A program made the position numbers and the translations under genes. Positions 1,245-37,042 of a stretch of DNA of 40,878 bases are shown in pieces. The first letter of the stretch is position 1; the number at the start of each line of letters is the position of its first letter. Source of the DNA: a virus (lineage: Duplodnaviria; Heunggongvirae; Uroviricota; Caudoviricetes). The stretch spans positions 1-40,878 of IMG/VR virus record IMGVR_UViG_2713896799_000014. The stretch is one strand, 5' to 3'. The notes under the pieces are model-generated. The model ran no database searches and was not told where the DNA came from. It saw only the letters and a list, made by a program, of their open reading frames with translations.

Positions 1245-2402
1245 ATGCTCACCGTTAAGCAGATTGAAGCAGCAAAGCCGAAAGAAAAACCATACCGCCT
1301 TCTCGATGGTAATGGCCTGTACCTTTATGTCCCTGTATCCGGGAAAAAGGTATGGCAGCTTCGCTACAAGATTGACGGTAAGGAGAAAATCATGACCGTC
1401 GGAAAATATCCGCTTATGACTTTGCAGGAGGCCAGGGATAAAGCATGGACTGCGAGGAAAGACATCTCGGTTGGCATCGATCCGGTAAAAGCGAAAAAGG
1501 CTTCGTCTAATAACAATTCCTTTAGTGCGATTTACAAGGAATGGTACGAGCACAAGAAGCAAGTCTGGTCTGTAGGGTATGCGACTGAACTTGCCAAAAT
1601 GTTTGATGACGACATTTTACCCATCATCGGCGGTCTTGAAATTCAGGATATTGAGCCGATGCAACTGCTGGAAGTAATCCGCAGATTTGAAGATCGCGGC
1701 GCAATGGAGCGAGCCAACAAAGCACGCAGAAGATGCGGCGAGGTTTTCCGTTACGCTATTGTCACCGGAAGGGCTAAATATAACCCGGCACCTGACCTTG
1801 CTGACGCCATGAAGGGATACCGCAAGAAGAACTTCCCGTTTCTTCCTGCAGACCAGATCCCGGAATTCAACAAAGCACTGGCAACATTTTCAGGAAGTAT
1901 CGTATCGCTCATTGCCACCAAGGTTTTACGCTACACAGCCCTAAGAACGAAAGAGCTTCGTTCCATGCAATGGAAGAACGTCGATTTTGAAAACAGGATT
2001 ATCACCATCGACGCCAATGTGATGAAGGGACGCAAAATTCATGTGGTTCCTATGTCAGACCAGGTAGTTGAACTTCTCACTACGCTAAGCTCAATCACCA
2101 AACCAGTATCAGAGTTTGTTTTTGCCGGGCGCAACGATAAGAAGAAGCCAATTTGCGAGAACGCTGTACTGCTTGTGATCAAACAAATCGGCTATGAAGG
2201 TCTGGAAAGCGGTCACGGATTCAGGCATGAATTCAGCACGATTATGAACGAGCACGAATGGCCTGCTGATGCTATTGAAGTGCAACTGGCACATGCCAAC
2301 GGCGGATCTGTGCGCGGAATTTACAACCATGCTCAGTATCTCGATAAGCGCAGAGAAATGATGCAGTGGTGGGCGGATTGGATTGATGAAAAGGTGGAGT
2401 GA
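1245..2402 (+). CDS. intS: Tyrosine integrase, P4-type (IntS-like)
   Basis: 385 aa from internal Met MLTVKQIEAAKP; transcribed away from adjacent tRNA; matches recollection of K-12 IntS. Confidence 0.9.
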   Translation: MLTVKQIEAAKPKEKPYRLLDGNGLYLYVPVSGKKVWQLRYKIDGKEKIMTVGKYPLMTLQEARDKAWTARKDISVGIDPVKAKKASSNNNSFSAIYKEWYEHKKQVWSVGYATELAKMFDDDILPIIGGLEIQDIEPMQLLEVIRRFEDRGAMERANKARRRCGEVFRYAIVTGRAKYNPAPDLADAMKGYRKKNFPFLPADQIPEFNKALATFSGSIVSLIATKVLRYTALRTKELRSMQWKNVDFENRIITIDANVMKGRKIHVVPMSDQVVELLTTLSSITKPVSEFVFAGRNDKKKPICENAVLLVIKQIGYEGLESGHGFRHEFSTIMNEHEWPADAIEVQLAHANGGSVRGIYNHAQYLDKRREMMQWWADWIDEKVE

Positions 2403-2544
2403 TCCACCTTAACCACTATCGAAGAGCGCAAAGCCTTGCAATACAGTGCAAAGCTTTGTGTTTCTCATTTTTTCTCACCAGCAACAGAGATAACCGCCCT
2501 ATGTCTACTTAACGAACTAAATAACGTAGATAGTTCAAAATATA

Positions 2545-4503
2545 TTAACCTATTTTTGTGTAGGTCCAATTAAAAGTGCCTGTGCCCTGGCTTGTAATGG
2601 TTACAATTCTCCCTGTTGCTGAAAAACTAAGAAATGCTGCTATTTTTAACGCAACAAGAATTAGCTTATCTCCATCATACATTGCCAGTTGTGTAGATGC
2701 GTAATTTTCTCCGCTTCCAGCCCCCCATACGCTAATAATGTAAGTACCTTGCGAATCTGGTATAGAGAAAAGTGTTGTCGGAGTATTTTCAGCCACAGCA
2801 GTAGAGCCTTTACTGGTAGAGAAGCATGATGTTTGCAATCCTTCCTTAGATGTTATTTGTGAATAACCATCTACGATAAGTCCTGTTTTTTTAGGGCAGT
2901 CATACCATGATACATCACCAGTACTTAGCGTACTTAAAACAGGAGTTCCTGTAGTGGTTGCTCTGAACCGGCTATTAAAGACACTTATTTTAGCTGTGTC
3001 TATTGCATGTAACATAATGGGATACCCAGACCCAGTATATGCAACTGTGTTGTTGTCAGATAAATCATCTTCTGATGACTCAATTTTAACATCGCTGCTA
3101 CCTGACGCCCTGATGTAGGAAACTACACCAGCATCACTTGGCGCAACACTTCGCATGCTGTTCTGATGTGCAGTCAGGCCAGAAATGCCACCACTACTAT
3201 TTTCGAAATGGAATAGTGCTGCCTCTCCATAACCATCTGTAGAGATGGTGTTACCCTCCGCATCAAAACCAATAATGTTAAAACTATGTGTGTTAAGAAC
3301 ATGAACGCCAGCCCCACCAAGCGAACCTGCGTTTAACGAAATATTTGATCCATCCATGGCACAGTTAATCATTGTAGCTGCAAAGACAGAACCAAACTGA
3401 TATGGTGATATACATCCAGATGTATAACATCTTTCCATCAGAATGGTAGTGCCAGTTCCTTTTGTAAAACCATTATGGCAGTTTCTGGCCCACACATTCG
3501 TAAGTTTTGTCAAGTATGTGCCAGTCTGATCATTAAAGCATGACCATGCACCATGAACTGTACAGTTTTTAATTTCAGACATTTCCAAGCTTGTTGAATT
3601 TGGAATTGTCGAGTAGAAATTAAATGCAATTTTCCCACCATCATTTTCAGGATTCGTTGGTGTGGTTCCTGGATCATAGAAAATATAAAGACCATCAATA
3701 AAAATCTGAATCATTTTTGTCGATAGGGAATCACCTTGATCTAAAGCAAAGGCTGAAATATTACCAATAATAGACATAAATGATTGCGCTCTATTTATTG
3801 TATCAGTTCCCTCTCCAACAATCCTAACGGAGTTTTTCAGAAAAATAGTTGAATTATAGTAACCAGTTCCCTTTGGAATAAGCACTGTTTTCCCCGTGTT
3901 ACATGCGGACTGAAGCGCAGCATAATCAACAGATTGAGATAGAGATGAAACAAATGGATATACCATCTGAGCGGCTGATAGTGTTGAAAATATCTCGCTT
4001 AAAGGGTGAAGCGTTCCGTCAATTGTAGCGCCAAAATCAATAACACTTATAGCCTGTGAATTTTTAATGTGCTGTGAAATAGAAGTAGCACCAGTGTACG
4101 GTTGTTTAACTGTAACTAATGCATCCCCCATTCCATCAGCATCGCTTTCTAACTGCTGCTTAAACTGATCAGGGTCATACTTCAGCACATTAGGGAAATA
4201 GAACTGCTGCGCACCATACGCATCGTACACAGCCATAGAATGACCTTGCACAGTTACGAACTTGGCAATCTGTCCATTATATACCGGGTAACCAGCAGCG
4301 TTAATGATGATTGGTTGCGATACAGGAACGTGAGAACCGTCTTCATTCTCCACATAAACCTGAATCCGGTTTTCAGGATTTACCGGGTCAGTGTCAATTT
4401 TTCCGATATAAATTTCTCCATTGGCTACGGCTTTAAAAGAACGCGCCATAGTGAAAAGTTGCGAAGGCATCGATACGATCACATTGGCTGTAATGTCTGT
4501 CAT
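2545..4503 (-). CDS. Tailspike protein (P22 gp9-like N-terminal head-binding domain, divergent receptor-binding domain)
   Basis: N-terminus [29 protein letters not shown] matches P22 gp9 head-binding domain; remainder differs from P22 endorhamnosidase. Confidence 0.85.
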
Positions 4504-5506: not shown

Positions 5507-5568
5507 GTTGGTTTTTCTCCAAGGATTTACCGACAACCGAAGCCCTGACTGTTACCGCAGTTGGGGCT

Positions 5569-5793
5569 TCAACTTTTCACTTCTTTAAAGTGCCTACCTT
5601 CTACAGTTGCTCTGAGATAAAAATTCTTATCTTTACCGTTTAGTGCTTCCCAAGCATCAACAATGCACTTATTACAGATGTGGACTTCTCGATAACCAAT
5701 AGCTTTCCTGTCAATATTAGTGAACATAACAGCTTCTTTATCTGTCAATGTGGATGCATGACAGAAGTCGCAATCTATATAAGATACCTTCAT
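5569..5793 (-). CDS. Small Cys4 zinc-ribbon protein, unknown function, inserted between arc and ant
   Basis: 74-aa ORF with CDFC...CNKC; start ATG overlaps arc stop (ATGA); not part of canonical P22 immI. Confidence 0.45.
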   Translation of the reverse strand: MKVSYIDCDFCHASTLTDKEAVMFTNIDRKAIGYREVHICNKCIVDAWEALNGKDKNFYLRATVEGRHFKEVKS

Positions 5794-24337: not shown

Positions 24338-24413
24338 TGGTGCTGGTTAACGGACTTGAACCGCTACCCATTCGCTTACAAGGCGACTGCTCTACCATTA
24401 GAGCTAAACCAGC
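24338..24413 (-). tRNA. Phage-encoded tRNA-Thr (anticodon UGU), hand-folded
   Basis: Minus strand: 7-bp acceptor GCTGGTT/AACCAGC, D-stem GCTC/GAGC, anticodon loop CT-TGT-AA, T-loop TTCAAGT, 3' ACCA. Confidence 0.55.
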
Positions 24414-24418
24414 ATGTT

Positions 24419-24493
24419 TGGCGGGACAGCGTGGACTCGAACCACGATAAGAAGGTTAACAGCCTTCCGTAATGACCTTTATACGACTGACCC
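24419..24493 (-). tRNA. tRNA-like gene, probable tRNA-Asn (anticodon GUU), one acceptor-stem mismatch
   Basis: Minus strand: anticodon stem GAAGG/CCTTC perfect, loop CT-GTT-AA, T-arm CGTGG-TTCGAGT-CCACG, 3' GCCA; acceptor 6 of 7 pairs. Confidence 0.45.
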
Positions 24494-31921: not shown

Positions 31922-32032
31922 ATGCCCTCCATAGTAACCATGAGACAATAATACGATATGTACTTTTGGAATGCAAACAAAAAATACATCTTGTGCATGG
32001 ATGGTTTTAGTACAGAGCGTAATAATAAGGAT
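31922..32032. promoter_or_regulatory. Divergent pR/pRM promoter and operator region
   Basis: 111-bp AT-rich spacer between divergent cro and cI starts; CGATA-N-GTAC-like motifs shared with the pL region; operators not resolved. Confidence 0.5.
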
Positions 32033-32692
32033 ATGAAAATGAAATGGTATGAACTGGCTAGATCCAGAATGAAAGAGCTCGGCATAACTCAAGAGAAGTT
32101 GGCTGAAGAGCTTGGTATGACGCAGGGTGGAATTGGTCACTGGTTGCGCGGATCTCGTCATCCATCTCTTGACGAGATTGGTGTGGTGTTTAAATACCTT
32201 GGTATTGATAACGTCTCATTCAACCACGACGGTACATTTTCACCTGTTGGCGAATACTCATCTGCCCCCGTTAAAAAACAATATGAGTACCCTGTTTTTT
32301 CTCATGTTCAGGCCGGGATGTTCTCGCCTGAGCTTAGAACCTTTACCAAAGGTGATGCGGAGAGATGGGTCAGCACAACCAAAAAAGCCAGTGATTGTGC
32401 GTTTTGGCTTGAAGTTGAAGGTAATTCCATGACCGCGCCAACAGGATCGAAGCCAAGCTTTCCTGACGGGATGTTAATTCTCGTTGACCCCGAGCAGGCT
32501 GTTGAGCCAGGTGATTTCTGCATAGCCAGACTTGGTGGTGACGAGTTTACCTTCAAGAAACTGATCAGGGATAGCGGTCAGGTGTTCCTACAGCCACTAA
32601 ACCCGCAATATCCAATGATTCCATGCAATGATAGCTGTTCCGTAGTAGGGAAAGTTATCGCCAGCCAGTGGCCTGAAGAGACATTTAGTTAA
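32033..32692 (+). CDS. cI: CI repressor with LexA-like S24 autocleavage domain (non-lambda immunity)
   Basis: 219 aa from [28 protein letters not shown] with AAGGA RBS; C-terminal S24 motifs GNSM and FKKL. Confidence 0.85.
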
Positions 32693-32723
32693 CAGCCTCA
32701 CCACTCTAAAACACACAACAATA

Positions 32724-32752
32724 ACCCGACCTTAGCGTCGGGTTTTCTTTTT
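32724..32752 (+). terminator. Rho-independent terminator downstream of cI
   Basis: ACCCGAC-CTTAGC-GTCGGGT followed by TTTTCTTTTT. Confidence 0.7.
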
Positions 32753-32817
32753 CCAAAATATAAACCCATTAAATACAAAGCGTTATAAAAAACTAATTAT
32801 ATTTAGAACATTTTGTA

Positions 32818-32853
32818 TTGACTCGATAAAGTACAAATCGTACTATTTAGCCA
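32818..32853 (+). promoter_or_regulatory. Early leftward promoter pL with putative OL
   Basis: TTGACT, 17-bp spacer containing GTACAAATCGTAC, TACTAT; transcript start region ATCAGCAGGACGCACTGACC as in lambda pL. Confidence 0.75.
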
Positions 32854-32885
32854 TCAGCAGGACGCACTGACCACCATGAAGGTGA

Positions 32886-32916
32886 GGCTCTTAAAAATTA
32901 AGCCCTGAAGAAGGGC
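32886..32916 (+). promoter_or_regulatory. nutL (boxA plus boxB hairpin)
   Basis: GCTCTTAAAAATTAA then GCCCTGAAGAAGGGC, as in lambda nutL. Confidence 0.85.
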
Positions 32917-33114
32917 AGCCTTCAAAGCAGAAGGCTTTGGGATTGGATGAATGAGCAGGCTGATGCTCGACCAATGTATAAACAGCGCTCATGGCAAGCA
33001 GTAACCAATCTGCGCCTCAAGACAGCGTCACTGGTAGTGCGGGCGCTCTAACCAGTAAGCCGGGGTTCAGCGCCGGCCATCCAATCACCAAAGCTAACTG
33101 ACAGGAGAATCCAG

Positions 33115-33447
33115 ATGGATGCACAAACACGCCGCCGCGAACGTCGCGCAGAGAAACAGGCTCAATGGAAAGCAGCAAATCCCCTGTTGGTTGGGGTAAG
33201 CGCAAAACCAGTTAACCGCCCTATTCTCTCGCTGAATCGCAAACCGAAATCACGAGTAGAAAGCGCACTGAATCCGATAGACCTTACAGTGCTGGCTGAA
33301 TACCACGAACAGATTGAAAGCAACCTGCAACGTATTGAACGCAAGAATCAGCGCACATGGTACAGCAAGCCACGCAGTGAAATGGGTGTGACATGCTCAG
33401 GCCGCCAGAAGCAACGCGGAAAATCAATTCCGGCTTATTACGATTGA
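33115..33447 (+). CDS. N: Antiterminator N
   Basis: MDAQTRRRERRAEKQAQWKAANPLLVGVSAKPVNRPILSLNRKPKSRVESALNPIDL matches lambda N incl. arginine-rich motif. Confidence 0.9.
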   Translation: MDAQTRRRERRAEKQAQWKAANPLLVGVSAKPVNRPILSLNRKPKSRVESALNPIDLTVLAEYHEQIESNLQRIERKNQRTWYSKPRSEMGVTCSGRQKQRGKSIPAYYD

Positions 33448-33649
33448 GGTAGTCATGCTCAAGAAAGTCAAACGCCGACTTTACAAAGAAGGTAGATATT
33501 CATGCCAATTGCCAAAATGCGACACAGCAAAATGGAGTGTCGACGATTGGTGTAACTGGATAGATAGATACGGAACTTGGTGGGATAAATAACAGGTAAC
33601 TTAAGCGGATTTATTTTCGCAGCAAACCACTTATTTGAGAGGAATTAAT

Positions 33650-34273
33650 ATGTCATCAATTCGCTTAACTACGAGAATGAAAGAGGAAATCGCTCGTAAC
33701 GCTTTAATTAAGTCTGGGGTTTTCACTGAACTTGAAGAAGTAACAAAGTTAAAGAACCAGCTTGCACTTGACGCCAGAGTTATTGCGTTTGGCGGTAAAA
33801 AGAAAACTGAGGAAGTGGATCAGTTATCATCCAAGTTGGTAGCTATAAGTGAAGAACTTGAAAAGATGGGATGTTCATTTTACTCATACGATTTTCGTTC
33901 TACTTCAATTTATCTGACTGTATCTGGAAGAAGGGTTGGATGGCATTCATATGGGAAAGACGGCAACGGCGAAGATATATTGCTTCCTACTCCGACAAAA
34001 GATAAATGCATGTTTGACGCAGAACACAAAATAACAAAAAGGTTTGATGAAATCTGCGCATTGCAACAAAACCTTGAAGCCTTGAAAAAGGATATCGAAT
34101 CAAATGTATGGGCTGCTTTGAACTCAGTCACAACAGTTAAGCGACTTATTGAAGTTTGGCCTGAAAGCAAAGAATTGCTACCAAAAGAAGCAGATAAAGC
34201 AAGTACAGCACTTCCTGCTTTACGGGTAGAAGATTTGAATAAGATGATTGGACTTCCTTCCGAGGCCGCATAG
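33650..34273 (+). CDS. Hypothetical protein, 207 aa; pL-proximal moron
   Basis: ATG with GAGAGGAA RBS; AT-rich; followed by its own terminator; no family recognised. Confidence 0.55.
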   Translation: MSSIRLTTRMKEEIARNALIKSGVFTELEEVTKLKNQLALDARVIAFGGKKKTEEVDQLSSKLVAISEELEKMGCSFYSYDFRSTSIYLTVSGRRVGWHSYGKDGNGEDILLPTPTKDKCMFDAEHKITKRFDEICALQQNLEALKKDIESNVWAALNSVTTVKRLIEVWPESKELLPKEADKASTALPALRVEDLNKMIGLPSEAA

Positions 34274-34288
34274 TCGGCCTTTATTTTT
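34263..34288 (+). terminator. Rho-independent terminator overlapping stop of the 207-aa gene
   Basis: AGGCCG-CATAGT-CGGCCT followed by TTATTTTT. Confidence 0.6.
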
Positions 34289-34407
34289 GGCATAAACAAC
34301 AGAATAAACACTGCACTGTGTATTCATTCCAACGAGTGAATACACGGAGCAATGTCGCTCGTAACTAAACAGGAGTCGACTTGTTCTGATTATTGGAAAT
34401 CTTCTTT

Positions 34408-34433
34408 GCCCTCCAGTGTGAGGGCATTTTTTT
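34408..34433 (+). terminator. Rho-independent terminator upstream of the 138-aa gene
   Basis: GCCCTC-CAGTGT-GAGGGC followed by ATTTTTTT. Confidence 0.7.
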
Positions 34434-34445
34434 GACGGAGGAATT

Positions 34446-34862
34446 ATGGAAATTACAGATATTCTGGTTAATCCAGATAATTACGACCAATTCAATATCT
34501 CTACTCAATCAGTTGATTTGGGATGTGCAACTGTCAGCGCATGGCTACTTAATGGTAAACAGTTGGATAAATGCCTTGATGCACATATGACGGTTAACAG
34601 CTTCCTTGCAGAAAAAACACACTGGCAAGATGCTGGAGGGAAATATGCTGGATGGCTTGAAAGCATGGGATTTGAATATCAATCTGATGAAGGTTGGTGG
34701 AGCCTTATAGCTGTAACGCCTGAGACAATAGAGTGCTTCGTTAAATACTCAAACGACGATGACTATAAACACCAGGTAGATTCTGCGATAGAAAGATATA
34801 AAAGAAAATCATTCAGCCACGAAATATCATCAGTTCTTGATTTCATAGAAGTCTTCAAATAA
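34446..34862 (+). CDS. Hypothetical acidic protein, 138 aa
   Basis: ORF with GACGGAGGAA RBS; no family recognised. Confidence 0.55.
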   Translation: MEITDILVNPDNYDQFNISTQSVDLGCATVSAWLLNGKQLDKCLDAHMTVNSFLAEKTHWQDAGGKYAGWLESMGFEYQSDEGWWSLIAVTPETIECFVKYSNDDDYKHQVDSAIERYKRKSFSHEISSVLDFIEVFK

Positions 34863-34946
34863 GCCGCCTAAGCGCGGCTTTACCGCATACCAATAACGCT
34901 TCACTCGAGGCGTTTTCGTTATGCAATCAAACAGAAGGAGCATCCT

Positions 34947-35117
34947 ATGCAACAGTTCGCTATTGCAGGGGCGGCATCGGTTCGCCCTTTCAACCCGATT
35001 TTATCGGTGCAGCATTCACGAAAAAATATTTTAACCGGAGCAGACTTTAAACAACCAAGAATGAAAAGTTTGCTCGAAAAGCTTTGGGATATTTTGAAAC
35101 AACAAGGCCGTCCATGA
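34947..35117 (+). CDS. cIII: CIII-like protein (protease inhibitor)
   Basis: 56-aa ORF with AAGGAG RBS; MQQFAIAG...LLEKLWDILKQQGRP resembles lambda CIII. Confidence 0.55.
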   Translation: MQQFAIAGAASVRPFNPILSVQHSRKNILTGADFKQPRMKSLLEKLWDILKQQGRP

Positions 35118-35284
35118 GTTTTACAGATAACTGGTCAGACGAAGAATTCATTCGTCAGATGAAAGAATTAATCGGTAACGAAGGAGATATTCATGTCACT
35201 TGCAACCACAGTGAAGGAGAGCAAGTTACAGAGACGCATGTACACGCAGCAGGCGTTAATGTATCGCCAGAATGGAGATCGTGA
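35114..35284 (+). CDS. Small hypothetical protein at kil-like position
   Basis: 56-aa ORF whose ATG overlaps cIII stop (ATGA); positional only. Confidence 0.35.
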   Translation: MSFTDNWSDEEFIRQMKELIGNEGDIHVTCNHSEGEQVTETHVHAAGVNVSPEWRS

Positions 35285-35371
35285 AGGTGTTCGCGTCTTT
35301 TTAAATGCGGCAAAGACTGAAGTATTAAATCAGCGTTATTTCCTTGGGCCATGTCCATTCTGAGGTGAATT

Positions 35372-36079
35372 ATGGATTTGAACAAATTCGATGAGCCATT
35401 CAGCCCTGAAGATATCGAATGGCGAATACAGCAAAGCGGTAAAACACGCGATGGCAAGGTGTGGGCTATGGTGCTGGCTTATGTCACGAACAGGGCAATC
35501 ATGAAACGCCTGGACGATGTTTGCGGCAAAGCAGGATGGCGCAATGAATACCGCGATATTCCCAACAACGGAGGCGTTGAATGCGGCATATCAATAAAGA
35601 TTGATTCCGAATGGGTAACCAAATGGGATGCAGCTGAAAACACGCAGGTAGAAGCCGTAAAAGGTGGTCGTTCCGGTGCAATGAAGCGCGCTGCCGTTCA
35701 GTGGGGAATCGGTCGGTATCTGTATAACCTTGAGGAAGGTTTCGCACAAACATCTCTCGACAAAAAGCAGGGATGGCACAGGGCAAAACTCAAGGATGGA
35801 ACAGGATTTTACTGGCTCCCTCCATCGCTGCCGGGCTGGGCAATCCCAGCATCAGATAACAAACCATCACCAGAAAATACCAACCAGAAATCTCCATCGG
35901 TTGACTGCGAACAAATCCTGAAAGACTTCAGCGATTATGCATCAACAGAAACTGACAAGAAAAAACTCATCGAGCGTTATCAGCGTGACTGGCAATTAAT
36001 GGCTGGCAACGAGGAGGCGCAGGCTAAATGCGTTCAGGTAATGAACATCAGAGTTAACGAACTAAAACAGGCGGCATAA
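35372..36079 (+). CDS. Rad52/Sak-family single-strand annealing protein
   Basis: 235 aa with WGIGRYLY motif typical of Rad52-like recombinases; GAGGTGA RBS; immediately precedes ssb. Confidence 0.7.
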   Translation: MDLNKFDEPFSPEDIEWRIQQSGKTRDGKVWAMVLAYVTNRAIMKRLDDVCGKAGWRNEYRDIPNNGGVECGISIKIDSEWVTKWDAAENTQVEAVKGGRSGAMKRAAVQWGIGRYLYNLEEGFAQTSLDKKQGWHRAKLKDGTGFYWLPPSLPGWAIPASDNKPSPENTNQKSPSVDCEQILKDFSDYASTETDKKKLIERYQRDWQLMAGNEEAQAKCVQVMNIRVNELKQAA

Positions 36080-36553
36080 ATGGCAAGCAGAGGCGTAAAT
36101 AAGGTGATCATTATTGGTCGCCTTGGGCATGATCCAGAAATCAGATATTCACCATCAGGAACGGCATTTGCAAACCTTACAGTTGCTACGTCAGAACAAT
36201 GGCGTGATAAGCAAACTGGAGAGCAAAAGGAGCAGACGGAGTGGCACCGCGTGGTAATGAGCGGGAAACTGGCAGAAATTGCCAGCGAATATCTGCGAAA
36301 AGGCTCTGAGGTTTATCTTGAAGGCAAATTGCGGACAAGAAAATGGCAGGATCAAAGCGGACAGGATCGGTTCACTACCGAAGTTATCGTAGGCGTTGGT
36401 GGAACCATGCAAATGCTTGGTGGAAAGCAAGGAAGCAATGAACAGTCTTCACCTCAGCGAAATAACGGCCAGCAACAAAGACAGCAATCTCAGCAGCATG
36501 GGAATCACAGCGAACCACCTATGAACTTCGACGATTCGGATATTCCGTTCTAG
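36080..36553 (+). CDS. ssb: Single-stranded DNA-binding protein SSB
   Basis: OB-fold N-terminus [23 protein letters not shown], Gly/Gln-rich linker, acidic tail ending DDSDIPF. Confidence 0.9.
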
Positions 36554-36562
36554 GAGCTGAAT

Positions 36563-37042
36563 ATGAAAATCTGCTCAAGATGCCATCAATAGAAGGAAGA
36601 AAGGGACTTTCAAATCAGAAGAGCATCCAGAGATGGATTAACTGCCGCTTGCCGGGCTTGCCTGGCTGAATACGACAAAGAACGCGCTGGATTGCCACAT
36701 CGAGTATCAGCAAGGAGAGAATATCAATCATCGGAACGCGGAAGAGAACGGTGTAACGCAGCCAAAAAGCGGTTCATTCAGAGCAACCCATGGAAAAGAA
36801 AAGCCCACATCATTGTGGGTAATTTTTTGCGCGACGGTAAGCTAATCCGACCACCAAAATGTGAGTGCTGCGGATCAGAATGTAAACCACAGGCGCACCA
36901 CTGCGACTACAGCAAACCAACCGATGTGATGTGGCTCTGCAAGTCATGTCATGTCGAGTGGCACAAACATAACAAACCTATCTACCCAGACGAGGAGCCA
37001 GTAACCCTCCCCTTCCCTCGTCACGCTATTCACGCAATTTAA
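36563..37042 (+). pseudogene. HNH-like zinc-finger nuclease gene interrupted by in-frame amber codon at codon 10
   Basis: ATG with AGGAG 7 nt upstream, then MKICSRCHQ, TAG at 36590-36592, same frame open to 37042; C-terminal HHCD...CKSCHVEWH. Confidence 0.45.

Follow-up and report, generated by a model that had tools for sequence, protein, structure and literature searches.

The segment at positions 33455-34946 of the window (the whole 40,878-nucleotide stretch of DNA analysed here) is probably the mosaic accessory region usual in the pL operon of lambda-type phages, here in an Sf6/P22-like prophage. The early-left stretch of the window contains nothing new in kind. The value of the analysis lies mainly in correct annotation: what the first-pass annotation had recorded as unknown genes with private terminators corresponds to the known lambdoid cassette-exchange zone, the three proteins encoded there belong to common, catalogued phage families and one of the 'terminators' appears to be part of an sRNA gene (PreS) that would reprogramme synthesis of the host sliding clamp.

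A pL-like promoter (9/12 matches in the promoter scan) is located at 32818-32846 on the + strand, as are all features described below up to the cIII-type gene. The promoter region aligns with lambda 35583-35355, and lambda position 35582, where the pL transcript starts, corresponds to approximately position 32853. The nutL site (32887-32916) contains a boxA-like sequence, GCTCTTAAA (32887-32895), with one mismatch to the lambda boxA, and a boxB, GCCCTGAAGAAGGGC (32902-32916), identical to that of lambda. The gene at 33115-33447 had been taken to encode the antiterminator N, and this identity was borne out for the 110 aa product by a match to Pfam N36 (E 1.6e-26), by 99 residues identical to the 107 aa lambda N protein and by the lambda-type nutL. 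The reported absence of rexAB also held, only ~125 bp, holding a bidirectional terminator, separating the cI stop codon (32692) from pL. Downstream of N the three ORFs lie where they had first been placed, and encode a 45 aa DUF5484 (phrog_1871) protein (33455-33592), a 207 aa Nmad5-family protein (33650-34273; counted from the ATG, the mechanical ORF beginning at TTG 33635) and a 138 aa acidic protein (34446-34862). Each is preceded by a Shine-Dalgarno sequence and each is indeed AT-rich, with a GC content of 0.41, 0.39 and 0.38, respectively, against 0.47 for the window. The variable zone ends at a cIII-type gene (34947-35117; phrog_550, E 1e-22), beyond which are Erf (35372-36079; Pfam Rad52_Rad22) and, after Erf, SSB (36080-36553).

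The spacer at 34290-34432 is 98% identical to the lambda ral-ea10 spacer (lambda 34068-33925; 141/144 positions identical, one gap), and the terminators of the region are nearly unchanged at the base level in lambda, Sf6, H-19B, PA28 and HK542. They are not private to each gene, as had been supposed, but represent the tL2a/tL2b boundary elements conserved from lambda; because conserved terminator-bearing spacers are the boundaries at which cassettes are exchanged, each gene looks individually punctuated. Of the two intrinsic terminators originally proposed, both are seen as hairpins with T-runs (34262-34288 and 34407-34433), but a third, tL2b-like hairpin at 34895-34914 (-9.9 kcal/mol, z -3.4), homologous to the lambda ea10-cIII spacer, was overlooked; it is the probable tL2b homologue. 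Also overlooked was a long hairpin of 17 bp at 34312-34350, part of the bsq4 boundary sequence, which is very stable (-22.8 kcal/mol, z -7.4, equalled by 0/200 shuffles) and invariant in lambda, Sf6, H-19B, PA28 and HK542. The intrinsic-terminator-like hairpin at 34262-34288, the first after N and presumably functional as such (terminator 1), overlaps the Nmad5 stop codon and is less distinctive in its folding (-11 kcal/mol, z -1.5, 21/200 shuffles being equally stable); it is kept in HK542 and, at the end of gene 34, in Sf6. The second (34407-34433; -12.3 kcal/mol, 7 U) has the GC-rich stem and poly-U tail of lambda tL2a, and the homologous hairpin is annotated as tL2A in Sf6. A further hairpin at 34861-34880, lacking a good T-run (-11.2 kcal/mol), marks the end of the 138 aa cassette. 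In total, 11 terminator-like sites were found in the region, compared with 5.8 +/- 2.1 in shuffled sequences.

The second terminator had been read as a plain terminator; it corresponds instead to the 3' end of a published Hfq-dependent sRNA, LPR1/PreS. In lambda, according to Silverman et al. (10.1101/2024.10.31.621285), LPR1 is located between ral and ea10 and has tL2a as its 3' end, PreS RNAs of ~88 and ~68 nt are expressed in the lytic cycle only, and PreS, in an Hfq-dependent manner, up-regulates dnaN. The same study describes PreS as conserved at at least 92% identity in 2,537 genomes, and by the authors' conservation criterion (at least 92% identity, no more than three gaps) the copy in the window belongs with these. 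With 5' ends estimated from the published RNA lengths, the homologue of ~88 nt would extend over 34346-34433 and the processed form of ~68 nt over 34366-34433. Residues 34377-34408 are predicted to pair with positions -47 to -11 of the K-12 dnaN leader, with two uninterrupted runs of 12 and 11 nt, at -29.5 kcal/mol compared with -9.8 +/- 2.4 for 500 shuffles (best -17.9); this complementarity is our own computation. The predicted pairing region of PreS has thus been preserved in the window copy. By homology to the lambda RNA, PreS would bind Hfq and open the host dnaN ribosome-binding site, and the additional sliding clamp so produced would aid phage DNA replication. The hairpin at 34312-34350, into which the estimated 5' end of PreS falls, may be a processing signal at which the RNA is cut and released from the pL transcript. 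No family was detected at the gathering threshold or at E <= 1 in an Rfam search of 32700-35400; as Rfam 15 holds no model that finds PreS, automated pipelines will keep missing it.

The genes had been described as a set, yet they behave as independently inherited cassettes. Of 5,426 complete E. coli genomes, 211 (~4%) carry Nmad5 and 37 the 138 aa gene, and the two genes are adjacent in ~14. In HK542, moreover, Nmad5 and PreS are present whereas the slot for the 138 aa gene is empty, with clean junctions; relative to this empty slot the insertion in the window spans ~34434-34884. Owing to this independent inheritance, the idea that the three ORFs form one system was rejected. Also rejected was a count of ~2,250 E. 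coli genomes as carriers of the region, which was driven by the conserved spacers rather than the genes. Nmad5 fills the first variable slot after N, and the 138 aa gene, always immediately ahead of cIII and preceded by Ral or other cassettes, occupies the Ea10/gp17 slot. In other lambdoid phages the two slots hold Ral, P22-type gp17, Ea10, Sf6 genes 33 and 34 and other uncharacterised genes. Ea10, gp17 and Sf6 gp33 share their slot with the 138 aa protein but are not homologous to it, and profile-profile comparison of these families with that of the 138 aa protein revealed no relation.

Promoter scanning found no promoter-like site ahead of the three ORFs, and terminator scanning found no terminator between N and 34262. 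The proposal that the two terminators make expression N-dependent may apply to the 138 aa gene and beyond, which lie behind both, but not to the 45 aa ORF and Nmad5, which precede the first and, to judge from the sequence, should be co-transcribed with N. We infer that the whole zone would be transcribed from pL upon induction or infection and not in the lysogen. Terminator 1 is the predicted end of an N-independent, immediate-early pL transcript of ~1.4 kb (~32853-34288) that would encode N, the 45 aa ORF and Nmad5; antitermination by N would then give access to PreS (ending at tL2a), the 138 aa protein, cIII and the Erf/SSB recombination genes.

The 207 aa protein, previously thought to lack a recognizable family, is a full-length member of Pfam Nmad5 (PF18757; 238.1 bits against a cut-off of 27, E 1e-70), residues 4-203 matching profile positions 1-206 of 206. 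It is also assigned to phrog_1965 and is the equivalent of HK542 gp33; the RefSeq name, 'Nmad5 family putative nucleotide modification protein', is applied by PGAP to genes 95-99% identical. The predicted structure (pLDDT 84.7) combines long helices with a beta-hairpin domain and has a C-terminal tail that is highly conserved although disordered. Foldseek comparison with viral models returned only other Nmad5 proteins or unnamed phage proteins, fold searches gave no useful match for either Nmad5 or the 138 aa protein, and sequence-profile searches of the PDB with both families yielded nothing beyond coiled-coil noise (E >= 0.24). Nmad5 always lies in the early-left operon, with recombination and replication genes around it, in temperate phages that infect Klebsiella, Providencia, Proteus and Salmonella as well as in one phage contig from a metagenome. 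Many temperate phages have it as the gene that comes first after N or the repressor. A survey of lambdoid early-left operons did not discuss Nmad5. Our guess would be that Nmad5 is a non-enzymatic coiled-coil adaptor, the conserved C-terminal peptide of which might attach it to a partner in replication or recombination, or else to a component of a defence system.

The 138 aa protein matches phrog_8967 over 138/138 positions (E 2.2e-87) and belongs to no Pfam family; all 49 of its aligned relatives likewise match this phrog and no Pfam family. Its acidic nature was confirmed (pI 4.5, net charge -12). Virulent rV5-like phages carry copies that are 68% identical. Structure prediction was unstable, with one model at pLDDT 77.8 and four below 50. 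Larger proteins among the distant matches offered no informative fusion, and a eukaryote-type C2-repeat protein among them was set aside as probably spurious. This protein and the 45 aa protein may, as a guess, be small proteins that bind to factors of the host or of defence systems.

As to what the three proteins do, our best guess, made with less than even confidence, is that they are lytic-cycle accessory factors. The first-pass annotation had instead suggested an exclusion or anti-restriction locus in this region; in so far as the region is a variable accessory zone of the pL operon this was right, but a role in exclusion by the lysogen is unlikely because there is no promoter-like site from which a lysogen could express the genes and because each of the three families is also represented in strictly virulent phages. 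Homologues were found in virulent T-even phages (the 45 aa family), in rV5-like phages (the 138 aa protein) and in Dhillonvirus, N4-like and Yuavirus phages (Nmad5). The reading of the ORFs as exclusion or anti-restriction morons that replace rexAB, ral or sieB and protect the lysogen or incoming DNA draws on the company they keep, since the same slots hold Ral and gp17 (annotated 'superinfection exclusion') and SieB is nearby in lambda, on the AT-richness of the ORFs and acidity of the 138 aa protein, and on the predicted presence of the 45 aa ORF and Nmad5 in the very first transcript. Some DNA-mimic anti-restriction proteins are acidic. The homology searches gave no confident match to Ral, SieB or a protein of defined function, so that the result which the first-pass annotation had named as refuting its reading did not arise. 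Yet the same searches also count against that reading: the Ral and SieB families were absent from the Pfam and PHROG matches of the three proteins at E <= 0.1, PADLOC-DB 2.0 returned 0 families at E <= 1 for any of them, and NCBIfam gave no match. Nor were Nmad5 and the 138 aa protein found on genuine plasmids, which often carry generic anti-restriction genes; plasmid searches gave a handful of matches, all to phage-sized, non-mobilizable records. None of the three sequences is present in the supplements of two screens for accessory-gene counter-defence. A point mutation in the nmad5 gene of a Dhillonvirus phage allows escape from the Tmn defence, but deletion of the gene leaves Tmn sensitivity unchanged (Yamashita et al., 2025, PMC11846954). 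For the Nmad5 family as a whole, this 30%-identical Dhillonvirus homologue is the sole source of experimental data. The residue altered in the escape mutant, K296, has R165 as its counterpart in the window protein and lies in the motif with the strongest conservation, TxKRLIEVWPE. On balance we regard the exclusion or anti-restriction reading as unlikely, although for anti-restriction or other counter-defence the evidence points in neither direction. The preferred reading of lytic-cycle factors leaves some room, on the doubtful side, for at least one of the three proteins to be a counter-defence or host-takeover factor common to temperate lambdoid and virulent phages. The likeliest candidate is Nmad5, in view of its predicted place in the first pL transcript, of its place at the head of Enterobacterales early-left operons and of the Tmn-escape motif; second is the acidic 138 aa protein, which is shared with rV5-like phages. 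Knowledge of what Nmad5 binds would help to explain the Tmn-escape phenotype and an early stage of infection by many enterobacterial phages.

Less probable still is that Nmad5, as its name implies, takes part in the chemical alteration of phage DNA by a DNA-base modification pathway. Besides the Pfam and RefSeq names, this is suggested by the Yuavirus MP1412 homologue, which has a thymidylate-synthase-like gene on one side and the gene of a 5-hmdU DNA kinase helical-domain protein on the other, and by an N4-like phage homologue that adjoins ThyX. Association with nucleotide-modification genes is nevertheless confined to Yuavirus and, in part, N4-like phages; the window and ten other temperate-phage loci have no kinase, pyrophosphorylase or hydroxymethylase neighbours, and in Dhillonvirus nmad5 stands alone on the opposite strand amid the head genes. 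An MT-A70 methylase is located two genes away at one temperate Nmad5 locus. The helical coiled-coil and beta-hairpin fold predicted has no enzyme-like structural neighbour, and the protein is single-domain in all of the 111 profile-search matches, with no fusion partners. The family name is based on gene neighbourhood only, no activity being reported in the literature searched, where other Nmad domains appear in a single mention, in DefensePredictor, that is not specific to Nmad5. The name thus implies an enzymatic function for which the predicted fold and the lambdoid context provide no support.

The 45 aa ORF encodes a Trp-rich, basic protein of the DUF5484 family (PF17583; 44.4 bits against a gathering cut-off of 27), which also matches phrog_1871 (E 5e-22) and is of the same family as the Sf6 gene 36 and T-even 55.4 products. 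Its GAGG Shine-Dalgarno sequence, 5 nt ahead of the ORF, overlaps the N stop codon. The protein had been called Cys-rich and does have three cysteines, but these are incidental (0/3 are conserved in the T-even homologues), for which reason a zinc site was rejected. A literature search found no papers on DUF5484. That one or more of the ORFs, this very short one especially, should be a random reading frame and the hairpins random matches is refuted by conservation, even though ~10% of shuffles fold as stably as terminator 1, and may be dismissed as extremely improbable: apart from its family matches, the 45 aa ORF has homologues in 880 phage records and 15 residues invariant across the lambdoid and T-even proteins (aligned with Sf6 gene 36 and 55.4-type proteins), the homologues of Nmad5 and the 138 aa protein extend to 25-33% identity with their length conserved, and the hairpins are kept across phages.

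One of the closest known systems is the lambda PreS. Over its 88 nt the window copy differs from that of lambda by one substitution, C to T at 34376, immediately on the 5' side of the pairing region, and one indel, a single G missing before the U-tail; like the lambda copy it lies after the first accessory slot and ahead of the Ea10 slot, and it has the same GC-stem and U-tail terminator and the same single-stranded stretch complementary to dnaN, but is flanked by Nmad5 and the phrog_8967 gene in place of ral and ea10. HK542 gp33, HK244 gene 01 and a hypothetical protein of mEp235 resemble the window Nmad5 protein in identity (95-97%), length (207 aa) and location after N, and their genes have the same terminator at the end, whereas the window has a DUF5484 micro-ORF between N and Nmad5; a comparable insertion is found in Sf6, where a DUF5484 micro-ORF separates N from ral. 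The Dhillonvirus SMS22 CDS6 product likewise matches Pfam Nmad5 across the whole domain, but is a 334 aa protein with an N-terminal extension and only ~30% identity to the window protein over its C-terminal half, and belongs to a virulent phage in which, unlike in the window, the gene is on the opposite strand within the head module. Ral, P22-type gp17 and Ea10 occupy the same slots, between the same flanking boundary sequences and with a shared Shine-Dalgarno sequence, GACGGAGGA, but have no sequence or profile similarity to the window proteins, so that their functions cannot be transferred to these. The spacers themselves are the same as those in Sf6 (bsq4, tL2A) and in HK542 and HK244 (boundary sequence 4), and across lambda, Sf6, H-19B, PA28, HK542 and the window the same spacers surround non-homologous genes. 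The window thus shows no material difference from other phages with these boundary sequences, and represents one more combination of their cassettes.

The three ORFs downstream of N that the first-pass annotation had read as a gene set, encoding products of 45 aa (33455-33592, + strand), 207 aa (Nmad5; 33650-34273, +) and 138 aa (34446-34862, +), are present and each is preceded by a good Shine-Dalgarno sequence, with GC contents of 0.41, 0.39 and 0.38, respectively, against 0.47 for the window. They are, however, inherited as independent cassettes, a case of the classic boundary-sequence mosaicism of lambdoid phages. Of 5,426 complete Escherichia coli genomes, 211 carry the Nmad5 gene and 37 the 138-aa gene, yet the two are adjacent in only about 14, and no single stretch of any phage record covers 80% of 33100-35400. 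The cIII gene lies directly downstream of the 138-aa gene in every case, whereas the gene ahead of it varies (Nmad5, Ral, an unknown of 156 aa or other small genes). Phage HK542 has N, Nmad5, the first terminator, a hairpin and the small RNA gene PreS, which its tL2b-like spacer abuts directly; by comparison the window has some 450 bp cleanly inserted (~34434-34884), bearing the 138-aa gene. The 45-aa ORF is likewise optional, since Sf6 has one in the interval from N to ral and it is absent from HK542 and most Nmad5-bearing E. coli prophages. A query with 34290-34930 matched 329 phage-genome records solely via its two flanks, the coding part being replaced in these by Ea10, gp17, Ral or other genes; no kinship was found between the 138-aa family and Ea10, gp17 and Sf6 gp33, which occupy the same slot. 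The upstream spacer is near-identical in lambda (the ral-ea10 spacer), Sf6, H-19B, PA28 and HK542, and the downstream spacer matches the lambda ea10-cIII spacer.

The surrounding operon is that of a lambdoid prophage with an early region like those of P22-like phages, Sf6 and IME10 among them. The three ORFs are preceded by a cI-type repressor gene (31958-32692, +), a bidirectional terminator (32723-32744), a pL-like promoter (32818-32846, +) and N (33115-33447, +; Pfam N36), and are followed by cIII (34947-35117, +), Erf (35372-36079, +) and SSB (36080-36553, +); rexAB is absent, as had been claimed. Lambda from 35583 onward aligns with the pL leader, in which boxA has one mismatch and boxB (GCCCTGAAGAAGGGC, 32902-32916) is identical to that of lambda, and 99 residues are common to the window N and the 107-aa lambda N. 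The two intrinsic terminators reported earlier were confirmed as hairpin and T-run sites at 34262-34288 (-11.0 kcal/mol) and 34407-34433 (-12.3 kcal/mol), and a third, at 34895-34914 (-9.9 kcal/mol), is presumably the homologue of lambda tL2b. Across lambdoid phages the tL2b-like spacer ahead of cIII equals the PreS spacer in its degree of conservation. A site scan of the region found no promoter-like site ahead of any of the three ORFs, and no terminator-like site from the N stop codon to 34262. The lambda pL start aligns at about 32853, and by analogy with lambda, transcription from pL would yield an N-independent RNA of about 1.4 kb carrying N, the 45-aa ORF and Nmad5, while N-modified polymerase would be required beyond 34288 and 34433, for the 138-aa gene, cIII, Erf and SSB. 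The suggestion that the terminators make the whole set N-dependent thus fits only the 138-aa gene, since the other two lie ahead of the first terminator, within the predicted N-independent RNA.

Further along the operon, two overlapping small ORFs of 66 and 56 aa (35084-35363, +) match phrog_2123 and phrog_1723; although both are labelled 'recombinase', they correspond to the HK97 gp42.1/gp42-type small proteins between cIII and Erf. Directly after SSB is a 116-aa Cys/His-rich ORF (36692-37042, +; CxxC...HH...CxxC...H) with the look of an HNH-type nuclease. The inspected part of the operon showed no Abc2/Gam-type anti-RecBCD gene, whereas in related prophages Anti-RecBCD_p2 follows SSB. Elsewhere, a full-length Rfam match (97 bits; 5507-5574, +) to sar, the antisense RNA from the ant/immI region of P22, shows that the prophage carries a P22-type immI region. 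Rfam also identifies three tRNA genes (1009-1080, +; 24341-24413 and 24422-24493, both -), the minus-strand pair lying inside the prophage body.

As judged by sequence, the second terminator closes a regulatory RNA gene that is already known, given the near-identity of its spacer to that of lambda and the published description of PreS. Window 34290-34432 and lambda 34068-33925 agree at 141 of 144 positions, and the Sf6 record labels this stretch boundary sequence 'bsq4' and its hairpin as homologous to lambda terminator tL2A. In lambda, the ral-ea10 spacer is the gene for an Hfq-bound sRNA, LPR1, now called PreS, which ends 3' at tL2a and occurs as RNAs of ~88 nt and ~68 nt in the lytic cycle only; by base-pairing ahead of the dnaN start codon it switches on translation of this host gene, and it also represses alaS and promotes phage DNA replication, with copies of at least 92% identity conserved across 2,537 genomes (Silverman et al., bioRxiv 10.1101/2024.10.31.621285). 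With 5' ends estimated by counting these lengths back from the U-tail, the homologue recognized by lambda identity would span 34346-34433 (+), and its short form 34366-34433; it differs from lambda PreS by one substitution (34376) and one indel. Rfam models did not detect PreS. The single-stranded stretch 34377-34408 is computed to be complementary to positions -47 to -11 of the dnaN leader of E. coli K-12, with perfect runs of 12 and 11 nt and a pairing energy of -29.5 kcal/mol, against -9.8 ± 2.4 kcal/mol for shuffled RNAs (best shuffle -17.9).

Between the first terminator and PreS is a 17-bp hairpin (34312-34350; -22.8 kcal/mol, z -7.4) that has no T-run, matches no Rfam family and is invariant in all five phages compared (those sharing the upstream spacer). 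Its 3' arm runs into the 5' end estimated for the 88-nt PreS. The hairpin could be an RNase processing site, a role that we infer, or the recombination 'boundary' itself.

The 207-aa protein had been assigned no recognisable family, yet it matches Pfam PF18757 (Nmad5) over its full length (238 bits against a cut-off of 27) and its RefSeq name is 'Nmad5 family putative nucleotide modification protein'. This name is probably misleading, and its enzymatic reading is not supported in the lambdoid context. Relatives, at 95% down to about 30% identity, are all single-domain proteins of about 200 aa in which conservation peaks in the C-terminal third (VWAALNSVTTxKRLIEVWPESKEL...LPAL.V.DLNKMIGLP). In the AlphaFold model (pLDDT 84.7), three to four long helices accompany a small beta-hairpin domain; a fold search found no solved structures resembling it beyond generic helical bundles. 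From residue 184 the modelled tail is of low confidence yet highly conserved, a predicted pattern typical of a partner-binding peptide. Nmad5 lies in the early-left operon of phages of Klebsiella, Providencia, Proteus and Salmonella and of a metagenomic phage contig, and in temperate phages frequently comes first behind the repressor or N, with genes of recombination and replication as neighbours (a DUF2800 nuclease, an Enc34 ssDNA-binding protein, SSB, AAA_24 and DNA polymerase A). Three non-lambdoid temperate loci from Providencia and Salmonella prophages (L014, L020 and L021) combine it with a DUF2800 PD-(D/E)XK nuclease, a family A DNA polymerase and an ssDNA-binding protein of Enc34 type, and this recurring neighbourhood may say more about Nmad5 than do the hypermodification clusters from which the name derives. 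Among virulent phages, Nmad5 sits within the replication module in N4-like members, and in Yuavirus it adjoins a protein with a 5-hmdU DNA kinase domain, from which its name probably stems.

In Dhillonvirus, also virulent, Nmad5 is a lone opposite-strand gene in the head module. According to the one experimental paper on the family, a K-to-E change in the Dhillonvirus protein allows the phage to escape Tmn defence, deletion does not, and the gene resists cloning (PMC11846954). The annotation of Escherichia phage SM_S22 has the gene (2796-3800) running against the head genes and sharing about 200 bp with the 3' portion of the scaffolding-protein gene (2183-3001), which is unusual for a gene described as toxic on cloning. 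By alignment, the counterpart of the Tmn-escape lysine in the window protein is R165, which falls in the TxKRLIEVWPE motif. We infer that Nmad5 is an adaptor with no enzymatic role that acts early, on DNA transactions or on a host factor.

The 45-aa ORF belongs to Pfam DUF5484 (phrog_1871), as do Sf6 gene 36 and T-even gp55.4. Its description as Cys-rich is meaningless, because the T-even homologues have other residues in place of its three cysteines; the invariant features are Trp, Tyr and a PKxDT motif. The 138-aa protein is acidic, as described (pI 4.5, net charge -12), and has no Pfam family; phrog_8967 matches it along its entire length and is found in all 49 aligned relatives, with a Pfam domain in none. 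Close relatives are few; a full HMMER scan gave 56 representative clusters, mostly of ~90-160 aa with a few short fragments or longer proteins, that share the motif DWGGxYAxWL...GWWS. Virulent rV5-like phages carry 68%-identical copies among their small early genes. No fold match was found with the weak structure model available as query.

Exclusion or anti-restriction had been proposed for these proteins; none of the three matched Ral, SieB or a PADLOC defence model, and their sequences are absent from the supplements of two published accessory-gene counter-defence screens. Homologues of all three in obligately virulent phages favour lytic-cycle functions over prophage-expressed exclusion. 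Nmad5 and the 138-aa protein are phage-restricted, since their few plasmid matches are phage-sized, non-mobilizable records.

The post-N region is thus real but ordinary, a known cassette-exchange zone with three catalogued phage proteins and a recently described sRNA, and nothing in it is novel in kind. Of remaining interest are Nmad5, a widespread and, by analogy, immediate-early protein linked to Tmn escape, the acidic 138-aa protein, also present in rV5-like phages, and the conserved hairpin adjoining PreS. The closest known counterparts are HK542 gp33 and the mEp235 homologues for Nmad5, Sf6 gene 36 for the 45-aa ORF, and the bsq4/tL2a/tL2b spacers and lambda PreS for the spacers and sRNA.
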